Below are positions 30,114 through 36,286 of a stretch of 51,538 bases of DNA, piece by piece. This DNA is from a virus (Duplodnaviria > Heunggongvirae > Uroviricota > Caudoviricetes), in the IMG/VR virus record IMGVR_UViG_3300026078_000021, positions 1-51,538 of that record, one strand, 5' to 3'. How positions within the stretch are numbered: position 1 is the stretch's first letter; the number at the start of each line of letters is the position of its first letter. A program made the translations under genes and the position numbers. A model generated the notes under the pieces. That model was not told the DNA's origin, made no database searches, and was given only the letters and a program-made list of their open reading frames with translations.

Positions 30114-30641
30114 CTAACCCACCCGGCGGCAGACCACAGACGCCGAGTAGATCGACGATGCCGTGGCGTTCGCGATCGCCGTCACGTTCACTGTGTCCAC
30201 AGCCGAGAGGTTGAGGACCACCGCCTGCGTGACGATCGCCGTCGAACCGGTCGTGCCATTCACGGGGAACGGAACCGGCGAGATGACCGCGCTAGAGGTC
30301 TGGTTGATCGCGAAGTTGTTGCTGTCGGTCGCCGCCACGGTCGTGCCGGTGACAGCGAGCGTGACCACGCACTCCCACTTGCCAGCGGTACCCGGCGTCA
30401 CCGTCGCGACCACCGTGGCGGCGGTCGGCGCGGTCGCCTTGCCGCTGCCCTGCGCGGTGACGATGGTGTCCCGGTAGAACCCGGTCTCCAACAACGCGTT
30501 GCCACCAGAGGCCAGTTCAGTCAGATAGGCGTTGCCGGACGGGTCGGCGGGCGTCTCAATCTGCTCCGTCACCCCCGGCGAAGGCTGCGCGAAGCCGCCG
30601 GGAACCGGCGTGCCCTGCGCGTTGAAGTTGGTGTTTGGCAC
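30114..30641 (-). CDS. Beta-rich virion protein (decoration-like)
   Basis: Thr/Ala-rich; GTG with RBS GTAAAGGAG. Confidence 0.65.
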   Translation of the reverse strand: MPNTNFNAQGTPVPGGFAQPSPGVTEQIETPADPSGNAYLTELASGGNALLETGFYRDTIVTAQGSGKATAPTAATVVATVTPGTAGKWECVVTLAVTGTTVAATDSNNFAINQTSSAVISPVPFPVNGTTGSTAIVTQAVVLNLSAVDTVNVTAIANATASSIYSASVVCRRVG

Positions 30642-30660
30642 ACAGCTCCTTTACGGGGGC

Positions 30661-30686
30661 GGCACCCCGGCTCTCGCCGGGGTGCC
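30661..30686 (-). terminator. Hairpin after the 30693-31001 gene
   Basis: 11-bp stem GGCACCCCGGC-TCTC-GCCGGGGTGCC; no U tract. Confidence 0.45.
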
Positions 30687-30692
30687 CGCCGG

Positions 30693-31001
30693 CTAGGACA
30701 TGTTGATTTCGGTGAAGCACTGGATGTTCGTGACGGCGGCGTTCAGGCTCGCGGCCAGAGCGACACACTCATTGGCGACGAAGTCGCGCACGAGTTCACG
30801 CGCCAGGCGGATACCGGACTCCGGCCAGAAAATGGTCACCACCGCGCCCGATGCGCTCGCGGTGGCGGCGGTGTTGGACACCGCCGGGAAGATGATGCCG
30901 TTGAACGCATTGACGATCGTGGTGGCGTCGCCGTTGGTGTTGCCCGGCGCGCTCAGGGTCACGTACGTGCGGTACGCGAGAGTGCCCGCTGGTGCGGTCA
31001 C
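30693..31001 (-). CDS. Hypothetical head-module protein
   Basis: GTG at 31001 with RBS GGAGG. Confidence 0.65.
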   Translation of the reverse strand: MTAPAGTLAYRTYVTLSAPGNTNGDATTIVNAFNGIIFPAVSNTAATASASGAVVTIFWPESGIRLARELVRDFVANECVALAASLNAAVTNIQCFTEINMS

Positions 31002-31049
31002 ACAACCTCCGTTGTAAGGCGATGGCATTCTGCAAGATGCCACCGCAGG

Positions 31050-31067
31050 GCGGTATTATGCAGGCAT
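31050..31067 (+). promoter_or_regulatory. Leaderless promoter/operator of the LAGLIDADG gene
   Basis: TATTAT (31054-31059) 6 nt before the ATG; near-identical to capsid exon 2 sequence at 31639-31621. Confidence 0.55.
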
Positions 31068-31581
31068 GGATGAACTGTCGCTCGCCTACTACGCCGGTCT
31101 TCTCGATGGCGAGGGGCACATCGGCATCCACCGCACGGTCCGCAAGAGGGATCAGGGCGTTCAGTACGGCGGCCGGATGTCGCTGCGCATGTCGGAGAGG
31201 GAAGTGATCGAACAGTTCGCGGAAGATTTCGGTCTCTCTGCCGGGCCCGCGAACTGCGGCACCAGACATGCAAAGCGGGAGGTGTTCGGGGTGTCGGCCG
31301 AAGGCCGACGTTCGAGAGTCCTGCTAGAACAACTCCTGCCCTATCTGCGGGTGAAGCGCGCGCAGGCCGAGCTTGTCATCCGGCTTGAAGCCGAGAAGCG
31401 CGAGCCCGGACTGCGCAGCAGAAAGATCCCCACGAGTCGGCTAATGCCTGGTGGGGTCGTCGTCCGTAGCACCGCCTCAGCCATCGGGCCGGAGACCATT
31501 GCCCGATGGGAGGCGATGTACGTGGAGGTGCGCAAGTTGAACAGGCCGGAGCACGAGATCGCGCCCCGGCCTGCCGGTTAG
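31066..31581 (+). CDS. Free-standing single-motif LAGLIDADG homing endonuclease, antisense to the late operon
   Basis: LAYYAGLLDGEGHIGI motif; LLPYLRVKRAQAELV; stop overlaps the capsid exon 2 stop (TTAG 31578-31581). Confidence 0.9.
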   Translation: MDELSLAYYAGLLDGEGHIGIHRTVRKRDQGVQYGGRMSLRMSEREVIEQFAEDFGLSAGPANCGTRHAKREVFGVSAEGRRSRVLLEQLLPYLRVKRAQAELVIRLEAEKREPGLRSRKIPTSRLMPGGVVVRSTASAIGPETIARWEAMYVEVRKLNRPEHEIAPRPAG

Positions 31582-33660
31582 GACCAGGTACCGGTCGAGC
31601 CGGAGCGGTCGGATTTCTGAATGCCCTGCATAATGCCGCAGTACTGCATTTCTGTTACCCACACCCACGACGGATGTGCGGCCACGTCATTTCTGCGCGG
31701 CTCTTACGCTCTCACGCAAGATCAGACCATATCTTGGACTTCTGGAGTCCCACCGTACATGGTCGTTGAACCTTCCCGTCGGGTTTCCCCAGGCGGGCTC
31801 GGCTGCTGATTGCCCCTGCTGCTTGCTTTTCAGGCGTTCACGCTCGGGCTTTCGCCCCACGTTGTAGCGCAAGCAGGTGAATCGGGTGTTCCAGCAATTC
31901 TCGGTGTTTTCATTCGCAGGTCGCCCTGCGACGGCCCCCTACTGAGGCGCGTTTGCAACCAAAGCCCCGTACATAAACATGCTGTAACGGAACGATGCGT
32001 CGATCACCGGCCACGAAATGGACAGGTAGTCCTGGACCGTGACGAACTCCCACACGTTGCTCACGTTCGACCAGGCGAACGGGAGCGTGTAGCTCATCGC
32101 CATGAGCGTGCCCTGCGGCAGCCACGGGTGCACCAACAGCTTGATGACGCTGCGGGTGATCGGGTTCTGGAACTCCGATACGGCTGCTCCGGCGCGGACA
32201 CCGGCCACGTCCGGCTGCTCGACGAACAGACGGTAAGCGGTGGTCGTGCCGCTCTGGACGATGTCGTTGCTCAGGCGCATCAGGTCGCCGCCCTCGCCGA
32301 TCAGCTCGGCCGGGTCGGCGCGGTAGGCCCCGGGGCCGTCCCACAGGCCCTGAAGCATCGTGTTGACATTCGTGATGTGCAGCACGTCGCCGACGGACTG
32401 GTTGATGTAGCCACCGTCCCAGCCGGCCGGGTAGACCTGGCCGTTGCCCTGGGAGTGCCCGGCGATGACCGGGATCAGGCCCTCCTGGGCGTTCGCCGAG
32501 CCCGTGCCGGTGTCGGCGGTCGGAGCCGTCGCGCCGGTGGTGTTCAGGGCGCCCTGGAGCGTGAAGTTCAGGCCGCCGACGCCGGACTGCATCAGGTGGT
32601 AGGTGCCGGCCGATGCGCCTGTGGTGACGTACAGGTTGTACTGGAGGGCGCCGGTGACCGGGGCGATCGTGACGTCCACGACCTGCCCGGAGGACCAGGC
32701 CACCGAAGCGCCGGTGGAGGCCGCCGTCTCACCCCAGTAGTTCGTGGCGGTCACCTCGACGAAAACGTTCGTCGTGATGCCGGTCAACGCGGACTCGCCG
32801 GAGTTGGCGGCGCGGGCCACGAGCGTCGGGGTGCCCGGGGTGGACAGGTTCGTGGAGGTGGCCGCGAGGTGCGCGACTTCCTCGTTGGACATGAACTCCT
32901 GGAGGAGGATCAGGTTTGCCAGGGCACTGATGTCCTCGAACCCCTGGCCGGCGAACTGCGCGAGCCAGGACAGCGACTCGCTCAGGCCCCAGAAGCGGTA
33001 GGGGACGTTGAGGTCGATGGAGTCCTGCACGCCGGAGCCTGGCAGGTTCAGCGGCCAGTTCTGGAGCGAGGAGGACCCGGTGACCAGCTCAGGGATGCCG
33101 AGCTGCACGAACTTGCCACCCGAGGTGCCGGTCTGAGAACCGCTCACGCCCGTGATGACCTTCGTACGGCGGGACGTACCCTGACCCGGGACACGCGGCA
33201 GCTTGTTGCGGATCGGGCTGTAGATCGGGTAGATCAAGCGGCTCGGTGCAACGAGATCGAACGGGACAAGACCCGAAGACAAAGGACTTGTCAACGTCAC
33301 GTTACGACCGATGAAATCGCTGATCTGGCCCGAGAGCTGACCCAGCATCTGCTGCATGCCATACGCCTGCGGCGTGGAGTTCAGGAACGACCCGAACTGT
33401 CCGACGAAGTCGGCCGACAGGCCCTTGACCACGGCCTGCGGGTCCGCGAGGGACTTACGCACCGCGTGCGTCAGGGCCATCTCCGCGCGCATGGAGCGCT
33501 TGAAAACCTCGTCATCGTCCTGCAAGGCGGCGTTGCCGCCGGGCCGGGCGAACCCGACCCCTTTGACCATGCTCGGCATCTTGCCGGCGAGCATGGCGTT
33601 CGGCTCGTCGTACTGGGCGGCCTCAGTCGCCAGCGACGAACCGTCGAGAACAACGGTCAC
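31578..33660 (-). CDS. Major capsid protein, split by a group I intron: join(33660..31945, 31646..31578), 594 aa spliced
   Basis: GLVPFDL..SPIRNKLPRVPGQG..EEVAHL HK97-fold motifs; splicing gives ..GALVANAP|QYCGIMQGIQKSDRSGSTGTWS; unspliced mRNA stops at 31939. Confidence 0.88.
31647..31944 (-). ncRNA. ORF-less group I intron (298 nt)
   Basis: P AAUUGCUGGAA (31899-89), Q AAUCAGCAGCC (31811-01), R GUUCAACGACCA (31771-60), S AAGAUAUGGUCU (31735-24); P3 CACCG/CGGUG; P7 GACCA/UGGUC; GNRA-capped P2, P5, P6 stems; 5' exon ends in U and intron ends in G. Confidence 0.92.
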
Positions 33661-33691: not shown

Positions 33692-36286
33692 CTACGGGAT
33701 GATGTAGGTCGACAGGACGCGCTCCGCGTTCATGCGCTGAACCGGGTCGCCACTGTTGGCCAGACCCGTCAGATACCGGATGTACGCGGCACGCTCCTGT
33801 GCGGCCTTCTCCGCGCGCTGGGCGTCGCCGATCGCCTTCTCCACGGGAGAGGCGTCCTCGTCGACGGCCGACTTCCGTACCGCGCCCCGTGGCGGGGCCT
33901 GGGTCGGGTCGGGCTGGCTGCCCAACAGATCAATCTCCGCCTTGAGGGCGGTGATCTGGGTTTCGTACTCGTCGCGCAGCGCGGAGGTGTGCTCCGCGAC
34001 GAGAGCCTTGACGATCTCCGCGACGTCGTTCTTCTCGCCGGGAGCCTTCGGGGTGGTCAAAGGGGTCGCCGCCTTCGGCACGTTGGTCGCGCCCATCGCA
34101 GCGTCCAGCACCGGGCCGGACGGAGCCATTGGGCAGGCGTCCGGGTAGGTGTTCGCGATGTGGTCGTGCAGGCTGGCCAGGGCGTTGCGGGCGGCGTCCT
34201 GGGCGCGTGCGCCGTAGAACCCGCGTGCCGCGCCGCTGCCGGCGATGTTGGTGGGGTTGTTGCCCGCCTTGCTCGCCGGCGACGGGCGCTCCTGGCCGGT
34301 GGTGAGCGGACCCCGGGTGAAGTCGCCCGGCTCCGGGACGTGGCTGGATGGCGGAACGCCGCCGCCGACGCGCGAACCGGTCGCGTTCTGCGCGGCGTGG
34401 CCGCCGGTGATGTACGGGCGGGTGAACTTGCCCGGCGTCACCGCGTCCGCCATCGGCTTGAGCGAGGCAGTGGGGTACAGGGAGGTGAAGGACTTGTGCA
34501 GGGCGGCGCGGGCGTCGGCCAGCAGGTACGGGTCGGTGGCTTTGAGCGACGCGGCGGCCTCGGCCAGCTCGCGCAGCTCGTTCGCCTTGCGTGCCTTGCC
34601 CAGGTCCGCGTGCTCGTCGGCCAGGCCCATCCAGTACGCCGGGTCCAGCGCGTCCGTGAGGGACTTGAGCGAGGGGTAGGCGGCCAGGACATCGTCGCCG
34701 TGGTAGGCGGCGCACAGGGCGTCGTGGGCGCGCTGCTGCGCGTACCCGATTCCCTTCTGGCCGACGGACGCGGGGACTTTGTCCGGCGTCGGGTCCGGGT
34801 CGGTGCCCATCCCGGCGTCGTGCTCCAGCGGTTCCACGGTCGTGGTGCCGTCCGGTTCGCGGTGCGTACCGGCTGGCTCGACGCTGGAGGGCATCGCACT
34901 CTTCGTGGTCGGCGCGGGCAGTTTGGCGCCGCACTTCTTGCAGTATTTGACCTTGGTATCGGCGTGGTAGACCTTGCCGCAATCCGGGCAGGTCTTGCCG
35001 CCTGCCTTCTCGGCCGGCTTGGTCTCGGAGGCGTCGTCGCCGATCGGCTTGCCGCACCCCTTGCACGTGGTGGAGCCGGCCTTGTTGTAGGTGTTGCAGT
35101 CCTCGCACTGCACCGCGCGGCCCTTCGCCGGTTTCTTCGCGGCTTTATCCGCGCTCTCGCCGTTCTTCCACGCATCCGGCAGCTTCGCCTCGAACGCGGC
35201 GCCTTTGCGCTTGGCGATGCGGATGATGTTGGCTTTGATCTGGTCGGCGGAGAAGTTGTCGGAGCCTGCGCGGCCCAGGGAACGCGCCGCGTCGGCGACG
35301 TCCTGTGGGCTGACGATGGGGAAAGAACGGTCTTTGCCGGCGAAGTCCTCGGCGGGGATCTTGTCGCGGTCCGTGCCGCCGCCCACGTTGGGGTCCATGT
35401 CGCGCTTGGCCAGCCACACCGGGTAGCCGTCGTCGGTCAAGCCCTCGGCTTCGCCCTTGGCCCACCAGCGCTGCCATGCGGCGCGTTTGACCAGGTACTC
35501 GGTGCCGTCGGCGGACTCGCCGCGATTCGGCTCGCCCTTGAGCCACGCGTGGCGCTGCGTTTTCCACAGCATCTCAGGGGCGCGGGTTTTGGCGGTCGGG
35601 CCGTCGGGGTTGTCGGCGTCAACGTCTTTCGGGTCGTCGTCGGCGGCTTCGGCGGCGTGCTCGCCGGCCTCTTCGGTGTCCTCGCGGTCCGGTGGTTCCT
35701 CGGGGGAGCCGGTTTTGTGCAGGTGCGTTTCGGCGCTTTTCTCCAGCATGCCGTTCAGGTCGCCGAACTCCCAGTCCGCGTCGATGCCCTCGGATTTGAC
35801 GAGGGTGAAGCCGCAGTTTTTGTTCGCGGGGGAGTCCACGAGGGAGAGTTCGCAGATGGAGGTGCGTTCGTTGCCTCGGATGATGCCGCCGCGTGCCTTG
35901 CCGGACATGTCGCGCTCGATCACCGGGTGCGCGATCCCGACGCTGAAGGCGCGCAGGACGCGGTTCTTCACCAGGGCTTTCGCGGTCGGCTCGACCACCA
36001 GGGCTTTGACGAAGTGTCCGTGGGGGGTGGTCTCGACCTCCAGGCCGCGACCTGCGGGGTAGAGCTTCGGGTTGTGCTGGACGCGCAGGGTGCCGCCGTC
36101 GGAGAGCCAGTCCTGCATGGCTTTGGCGGACCACTGGGGGTCGACGATCTGCTGGTCGGTGTCGATACTGCCGTCGGTGGCCTTGCCGTAGACGACGAGG
36201 TTGCCGTCCGCGTCCTCCTCGGATTTCGTGATGTCGAAGCCGACGTACACCTTGTCGCTGTTGTCGGCGTCGATCAGCTTCGCCAC
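33692..36286 (-). CDS. Prohead maturation protease fused to scaffold, with accessory domains (DUF6582-like, double Zn ribbon)
   Basis: VYGKATDGSIDTDQQIV..RAFSVG..ELSLVDSPAN; FAGKDRSFPI domain; CEDC..CKGC, CPDC..CKKC; C-terminal coiled coil. Confidence 0.85.
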   Translation of the reverse strand: MAKLIDADNSDKVYVGFDITKSEEDADGNLVVYGKATDGSIDTDQQIVDPQWSAKAMQDWLSDGGTLRVQHNPKLYPAGRGLEVETTPHGHFVKALVVEPTAKALVKNRVLRAFSVGIAHPVIERDMSGKARGGIIRGNERTSICELSLVDSPANKNCGFTLVKSEGIDADWEFGDLNGMLEKSAETHLHKTGSPEEPPDREDTEEAGEHAAEAADDDPKDVDADNPDGPTAKTRAPEMLWKTQRHAWLKGEPNRGESADGTEYLVKRAAWQRWWAKGEAEGLTDDGYPVWLAKRDMDPNVGGGTDRDKIPAEDFAGKDRSFPIVSPQDVADAARSLGRAGSDNFSADQIKANIIRIAKRKGAAFEAKLPDAWKNGESADKAAKKPAKGRAVQCEDCNTYNKAGSTTCKGCGKPIGDDASETKPAEKAGGKTCPDCGKVYHADTKVKYCKKCGAKLPAPTTKSAMPSSVEPAGTHREPDGTTTVEPLEHDAGMGTDPDPTPDKVPASVGQKGIGYAQQRAHDALCAAYHGDDVLAAYPSLKSLTDALDPAYWMGLADEHADLGKARKANELRELAEAAASLKATDPYLLADARAALHKSFTSLYPTASLKPMADAVTPGKFTRPYITGGHAAQNATGSRVGGGVPPSSHVPEPGDFTRGPLTTGQERPSPASKAGNNPTNIAGSGAARGFYGARAQDAARNALASLHDHIANTYPDACPMAPSGPVLDAAMGATNVPKAATPLTTPKAPGEKNDVAEIVKALVAEHTSALRDEYETQITALKAEIDLLGSQPDPTQAPPRGAVRKSAVDEDASPVEKAIGDAQRAEKAAQERAAYIRYLTGLANSGDPVQRMNAERVLSTYIIP

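Follow-up and report, generated by a model that had tools for sequence, protein, structure and literature searches.

A Group I Intron and an Adjacent LAGLIDADG Endonuclease Gene at a Palindromic Site in the Probable Capsid Gene of a Soil Phage

Organization of the Locus

The DNA analysed here (the window) is the first 51.5 kb (51,538 nt) of a virus record that is complete at 115,538 bp and carries direct terminal repeats. According to the ORF list, its minus strand contains an ORF of 573 codons (33660..31939) that terminates in ...VANAPQ-stop. The corresponding protein has 1034 homologues, most of which are 590–630 aa long. The closest full-length intronless homologues (P0004, P0005 and P0008) end in ...ANAPQYCGIMQGIQKSDRSGSTGTWS, identical to the product expected after splicing, and this 22-residue tail is encoded exactly at 31646..31578. 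The features of the locus are as follows.

31945..33660, minus strand: exon 1 of the capsid-like gene, 572 codons, ending ...GCG CCT (from the ORF list)
31944..31647, minus strand: ORF-less group I intron, 298 nt (Rfam Intron_gpI, covariation, RNA contig)
31578..31646, minus strand: exon 2 of the capsid-like gene, 22 codons, QYCGIMQGIQKSDRSGSTGTWS, plus stop (from the C-terminus of intronless homologues, tblastn and the L001 alignment)
31066..31581, plus strand: free-standing gene, running antisense to the capsid gene (the two stops overlap), for a predicted single-motif LAGLIDADG homing endonuclease of 171 aa
31005..31577: endonuclease cassette, an insertion of about 570 bp relative to contig L001 (from blastn and reading of both sequences)

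On the minus strand, exon 1 ends in ...AACGCGCCT at 31945 and exon 2 starts with CAGTACTGCGGC at 31646. The closest relative of the capsid-like gene, found on L001, shares 90% aa identity with it and has neither the intron nor the endonuclease gene. When the region was compared by megablast with deposited phage genomes, zero matches were returned.

The gene split by the intron is a probable capsid gene. In the Atlas it resembles clusters of SU10/N4-type major capsid proteins, which serves as a lead only, and its PHROG match is PHROG 13692, of no assigned function. A PDB profile search with the capsid alignment gave nothing meaningful, and the AlphaFold model of the protein had a mean pLDDT of 50, too low for a fold search; consequently, the capsid identity rests on gene order and on the Atlas look-alikes. 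Introns have a bearing on annotation, since gene calling renders the capsid gene of these phages as a truncated or fragmented ORF wherever an intron is present.

Upstream of the capsid-like gene, on the same strand (33692-36286), lies a gene for an 864-aa protein in which Pfam detects a DZR double zinc ribbon (E 2e-5, just under the 27.3-bit cut-off). The sole PHROG match of this protein is to a PHROG of no assigned function, and in L001 and L004 the capsid gene has the same gene ahead of it.

The Group I Intron and Its Removal

The intron interrupts the capsid-like gene at NAP|QYCG. In the alignment with intronless L001, homology runs to ...CCTCAGTA and restarts at CAGTAC..., and we set the borders (31944..31647) by the rule "U before, G at end". 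Group I introns require a U ahead of the 5′ splice site; the last base of this intron, directly before exon 2, is a G at 31647. By reading, the 5′ splice site falls after the U of GCCU, which can pair with GGGC at intron positions 9–12, with a U·G wobble at the splice site itself. A shifted P1 register (GCCUC/GGGGC) is also possible.

Rfam model RF00028 (Intron_gpI) matches 31954..31703 over its full length, with a score of 45.4 bits, below the gathering score of 50, and with E-values of 4e-10 in the window search and 1e-11 in the genome search. A search of the whole window at the gathering threshold returned nothing, and the intron surfaces only under an E-value threshold. When 10 members of the intron family, drawn from other viral contigs and from differing insertion sites, were aligned, 42 of the 72 consensus pairs proved to be kept through changes on both sides. 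The 298 nt are ribozyme throughout, with no endonuclease ORF, and neither a second group I intron nor a second endonuclease was found in the complete genome of the phage.

A 172-nt metatranscriptome contig joins 31641 to 31940 with 0 mismatches. Because TACTG is repeated at both borders, this join is the same as the predicted one (31646|31945). Contigs from three DNA runs read through the intron unspliced. The short side of the RNA contig measures only 18–23 nt and an RNA library can contain DNA, so that we grade removal of the intron with exact exon ligation as strongly supported, not proven; the intron and the junction themselves are as good as established.

The same metatranscriptome run yielded contigs over the endonuclease gene (31135-31317) and over the unspliced border between exon 2 and the intron (31452-31725). 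These contigs, which may be of either strand, could represent endonuclease mRNA, capsid read-through, precursor RNA or DNA carry-over.

The LAGLIDADG Endonuclease

The endonuclease gene lies outside the intron, on the opposite strand and about 66–69 nt beyond the intron end, a point left unstated in an earlier, sequence-only reading of this DNA. At the equivalent place L001 has a spacer of about 52 nt, with a terminator hairpin, between the capsid stop and the ribosome-binding site of the next gene, and homology to L001 restarts at that ribosome-binding site.

The sequence-only reading had taken the 171-aa product for a single-motif LAGLIDADG enzyme of the I-CreI type, and profile comparisons bear this out. 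As a single sequence, the protein matched Pfam LAGLIDADG_1 with an E-value of 0.0087, below the cut-off. A profile built from the protein and seven relatives, when run against PDB, matched I-CvuI (2e-15, over the whole chain), I-MsoI (6e-11) and I-CreI (about 1e-9). The motif LAYYAGLLDGEG (residues 6-17) and the segment PYLRVK (with K97) align to the motifs of I-MsoI and I-CreI, and both are invariant or conservatively kept in the 8 aligned relatives. Judging from these similarities, the protein is an I-CreI/I-MsoI/I-CvuI-like single-motif LAGLIDADG enzyme.

A two-copy model of the protein scored 0.73 versus 0.34 for the best control, passing a mark that is reached by 20 of 30 solved homodimers and by 1 of 23 monomers, a pass that may reflect memory of I-CreI-like structures. 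The interface is formed by residues 3-16, 42-50 and 93-96; the runs agree in at least 85% of contacts, with pLDDT values of at least 81. The enzyme is thus predicted by modelling to be a homodimer, assembled through the LAGLIDADG helix.

Could the protein have ceased to be a homing endonuclease, its gene being in decay or its role being that of a maturase for the neighbouring intron? Bacterial LAGLIDADG maturases exist (PMC3984707), the family diverges fast (45% identity between lineages) and the single-sequence Pfam score falls under the threshold; in such a case, the palindrome described below would be roleless. We consider this quite improbable, as all eight aligned relatives retain a full-length frame together with the acidic motif residue (in DGEG) and the Lys of PYLRVK, the identical protein is encoded on 4 contigs, and the profile match spans the entire I-CvuI chain. 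Moreover, the same intron family occurs at many sites without any LAGLIDADG protein, implying that it needs no dedicated maturase.

The ATG of the endonuclease gene has no Shine-Dalgarno sequence ahead of it (31040-31068) and is preceded, 6 nt upstream, by TATTAT, which suggests a leaderless transcript; unlike the window gene, its relatives in L002 and L004 have GGAGG ahead of their starts. A scan of 30600-32100 for sigma-70 promoters and terminators gave nothing. The gene is also flanked by a 15-nt inverted repeat (14/15; 31050-31064 and 31625-31639), whose chance expectation in the 1.1-kb region is, roughly, about 0.03. The first arm overlaps the TATTAT and ends just ahead of the ATG, and the second is exon 2 coding sequence, 8 nt from the intron site. 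Its absence from L002 and L004 means that the repeat does not characterise the family; it may be a relic, or else an element with a regulatory or operator-like function.

A Palindrome at the Joined Exons

Joining the exons creates the 16-mer GCCTCAGTACTGCGGC (GCCT|CAGTACTGCGGC), which is 14/16 self-complementary (7/8 symmetric pairs) and centred on GTAC. This agrees with the sequence-only reading, and the junction is now backed by the intronless homologues and the RNA contig. The left outer arm is GCCT, i.e., the last 4 nt of exon 1 (31948..31945), and the first 12 nt of exon 2 (31646..31635) supply the center and the right arm, with the predicted GTAC at 31644..31641. Extended to 22 bp, the joined site has 7/11 symmetric pairs. 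The intron was said to insert within the left arm and to replace GCGCCT, and at the 3′ junction it does put GAAATG in place of GCGCCT. Both donor intron borders retain 12/16 of the joined site.

In the 51.5-kb window, 16-mers with at least 7/8 pairs occur with a frequency of 9.1e-4 per position (47 cases), and a point placed at random has p = 0.008 of falling within 4 nt of such a 16-mer (p = 0.019 for 10 nt), which puts the coincidence at p of about 0.01-0.02. We surveyed about 78 intronless relatives for the palindrome and could profile 74 of them across registers. Among the 331 registers covering the last 330 nt of the gene, the highest mean palindromy was that of the intron site, at +4 nt from the insertion point.

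The palindrome corresponds to the codons for Pro-Gln-Tyr-Cys-Gly, CCG CAG TAC TGC GGC, in a high-GC genome. Intronless QYCG alleles have 7-8 of 8 symmetric pairs (mean 7.4/8) and up to 9/11 over the longer span; two of them (L219 and L222) carry the perfect 16-mer GCCGCAGTACTGCGGC, and L153 has a perfect variant with an ATAT center. QYSG, QYNG, FYCG and YYSG alleles are far less symmetric. In the phage under study, the sole asymmetric pair is caused by the T of CCT, most relatives having CCG, and this symmetry-breaking T is the U needed ahead of the 5′ splice site.

The codons of a conserved peptide account fully for the palindrome, so that no endonuclease is needed to explain it. This is the starting point of the main rival to cleavage at GTAC, namely a nearby target that does not depend on the palindrome. 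The palindrome would then be a coding coincidence, the endonuclease would be active but cut elsewhere in the vicinity, and the intron would be a closely linked passenger. We regard this as rather unlikely. Against it, the intron site is the top palindromic register across the family. In addition, other palindromes with at least 7/8 pairs exist within about 1.5 kb (centers at 32099 and 32550), and these are intact in the phage's own genome, meaning that they cannot be targets of the endonuclease.

Two further searches were made. The complete 115,538-bp phage genome contains no copy of the joined site, GCCKCAGTACTGCGGC, within 2 mismatches; provided that this sequence is the target, the donor lacks an intact target. 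The pattern GTAACA..TACTGCGG gave 49 matches among genome contigs, which appeared to be chance matches in unrelated bacteria and were discarded.

Association of Enzyme and Intron in Related Phages

Among 5.8 billion proteins we found only two close relatives of the endonuclease, P0122 and P0123, which are 45% identical to the window protein and 81% identical to each other. P0122 is encoded on L002/L003 and P0123 on L004/L005/L006/L093/L233; on every contig recovered, the gene is antisense and just past the capsid gene. In the adjacent capsid genes, the NAP|xYCG site likewise holds a homologous intron (82% column identity), and four or five additional introns are present. Every locus with a close endonuclease relative has the intron, and about 80 (>75) sampled relatives are without both elements. 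Among 80 LAGLIDADG relatives in viral contigs, only L006 adjoins this capsid family.

That the endonuclease was never seen without the intron argues against the intron being a mere passenger; however, with only about two independent endonuclease lineages, the co-occurrence could be due to close linkage alone. Two other observations favor a palindrome-independent target. First, the junctions of the related endonuclease lineages are non-palindromic: in L002 and L004 the joined site (FYCG, ...CCCTTCTACTGCGGT...) has only 4/8 symmetric pairs, and the best nearby register at most 5/8, with splice points that are not fixed to the nucleotide because several U/G choices yield the same mRNA. Second, in the metagenome contigs L234 and L237 an intron is present at the NAP|xYCG site with no endonuclease gene in >1.1 kb downstream, showing that the intron is independent of the enzyme. 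The introns of L234 and L237 differ from the window intron in their catalytic core and are similar to it in P1-P2. Their state also matches the stage of endonuclease loss that the life cycle of such elements predicts.

Joint transfer of intron and flanking DNA might leave a trace of co-conversion. Third-position identity to L001 is 0.50-0.60 near the intron vs 0.72 overall, and for the last 140 nt of exon 1 no sampled relative matches above 0.86. Similar identity dips occur elsewhere in the gene, so that this signature is a hint only.

Proposed Mechanism of Homing

The intron sits nearly on the palindrome and the adjacent enzyme belongs to a type that cuts palindromes; for this reason, they are likely to be spreading jointly, forming a selfish gene pair of a known type. 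More specifically, the intron and the enzyme may form a two-part unit of the collaborative-homing type in this 115.5-kb soil phage, with the joined palindrome as the target of the enzyme, a reading that we hold to have about an even chance of being right. Cleavage of the palindrome at GTAC, as predicted from the sequence, could in our estimate equally well prove true or false.

In the proposed mechanism, the homodimeric enzyme would act on the intronless capsid alleles of related phages. Its target would be a 14-16 bp palindrome, (G/C)CC(G/T)CAGTACTGCGG(C), arising from the PQYCG codons, and its center would lie 4 nt downstream from where the intron inserts. A cut across GTAC would generate 4-nt 3′ overhangs, and repair from the donor would copy the intron, the 69-nt exon 2 and the endonuclease gene jointly, amounting to about 0.94 kb (31005-31944). 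A break at this site, 69 nt from the endonuclease gene, fits such a scheme, being close enough for joint conversion. The donor genome would remain uncut because its intron replaces the left half-site from position -5 outwards.

The literature supports the enzymological premises of the sequence-only reading, i.e., that enzymes of this kind bind pseudo-palindromes and that GTAC has a precedent as the center. I-CreI-type enzymes cut 22-bp pseudo-palindromes whose half-sites share 7/11 or 5/11 bases (PMC3315327), and GTAC is the center of the symmetrised I-CreI site, among the minority of cleavable centers (PMC3413129). As for the assignment of the target in the present case, we see it as a good, testable hypothesis, a well-founded prediction from sequence rather than a result.

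Many free-standing phage endonucleases cut elsewhere in the vicinity. If the enzyme did so here, the candidate targets would be the insertion point of its own gene, in the spacer between the capsid stop and the next gene, which in L001 contains a terminator palindrome with a 12-bp stem, or another conserved stretch of a neighboring gene. The cassette replaces the hairpin-bearing spacer of L001, so that a target in the spacer would be destroyed by the insertion alone. However, spacer and terminator sequences are not conserved among the relatives, which makes them poor homing targets.

Returning to homing into the joined palindrome, a broader scenario may be put forward more tentatively, and we would not expect all of it to hold. 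The pair may hunt the perfect palindrome encoding PQYCG in capsid genes of related soil actinophages, the symmetry of the donor being broken by the U requirement of the ribozyme, and such pairs may have invaded the 3′ end of the capsid gene over and over. This end of the gene has up to six introns in relatives, with two unrelated cores occupying one site.

Comparison with Known Systems

Collaborative homing in phages has been reviewed, including the case of F-CphI and the ORF-less psbA intron of cyanophage S-PM2 and a case from a T7-like phage (PMC3984707). F-CphI is a free-standing endonuclease of S-PM2 (PMC6083498), and in T4, mobE is responsible for the trans-homing of the I-TevIII intron (PMC2790892). 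As in these phages, the inferred target in our system is the intron insertion site, the intron would shield the donor and both elements would move jointly. The enzyme is of the LAGLIDADG homodimer type, whereas those of the other phages are Endo VII-like or HNH enzymes; the host gene is structural and capsid-like and belongs to a high-GC soil phage; the gene for the endonuclease runs antisense and overlaps the stop of the capsid gene; and cleavage is, here, predicted only.

I-CreI, I-MsoI and I-CvuI are homodimeric LAGLIDADG enzymes encoded by introns of algal chloroplast 23S rDNA. The window enzyme resembles them in having a single motif, about 170 aa, the acidic residue and the Lys, and a predicted dimer through the motif helix, and its expected target is likewise a pseudo-palindrome with a 4-bp center. 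I-CreI, too, cuts a few nucleotides 3′ of its intron insertion site. Unlike these enzymes, however, the window protein is not intron-encoded, and its predicted target is protein-coding DNA rather than rDNA; the similarity is remote (profile E 1e-9 to 2e-15).

Introns also occur in the capsid genes of cluster J mycobacteriophages. The capsid-gene introns of actinobacteriophages and the present one are all small, ORF-less and located in structural genes of phages of Actinobacteria. The actinobacteriophage introns are not known to have a partner endonuclease or a target site.

Should cleavage map to the palindrome, the pair would be a LAGLIDADG-type addition to the handful of demonstrated collaborative-homing systems, which are thought to represent the step before an endonuclease gene enters an intron. 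If the proposal is true, the alleles of the capsid gene (perfect palindrome, one-base asymmetric, non-palindromic FYCG and intron-protected) would also constitute a natural series for the co-shaping of homodimer specificity and ribozyme splice-site rules.

Other Introns in Related Phages

Related capsid genes can be split by as many as six introns (L002:4600-8530, L004:4570-7900, L237:1180-4140, as well as L235 and L234). The approximate insertion sites, in P0004 numbering, are 160, 240, 267, 563-567, 579 and 592, and in these genes the gene callers give strings of small ORFs. In L234:1300-1700, L237:1190-1530 and L235:1030-1380, the NAP|xYCG site holds a group I intron with another core, in which the start of P1-P2 is nearly the same (GGGGGCCACAGCACGGTGACGTGC...). 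This combination is suggestive of introns that are chimeric or of a single site that was invaded repeatedly.

Finally, two members of the intron family lie in non-capsid genes (L090:2731-2900 and L091:200-345). Past their core, the sequence can be read as an ORF that includes a zinc-finger-like CxxC...C stretch. It is similar to the extensions at the C-termini of P0126 and P0128, which are distant LAGLIDADG relatives, and may represent an intron-encoded protein.
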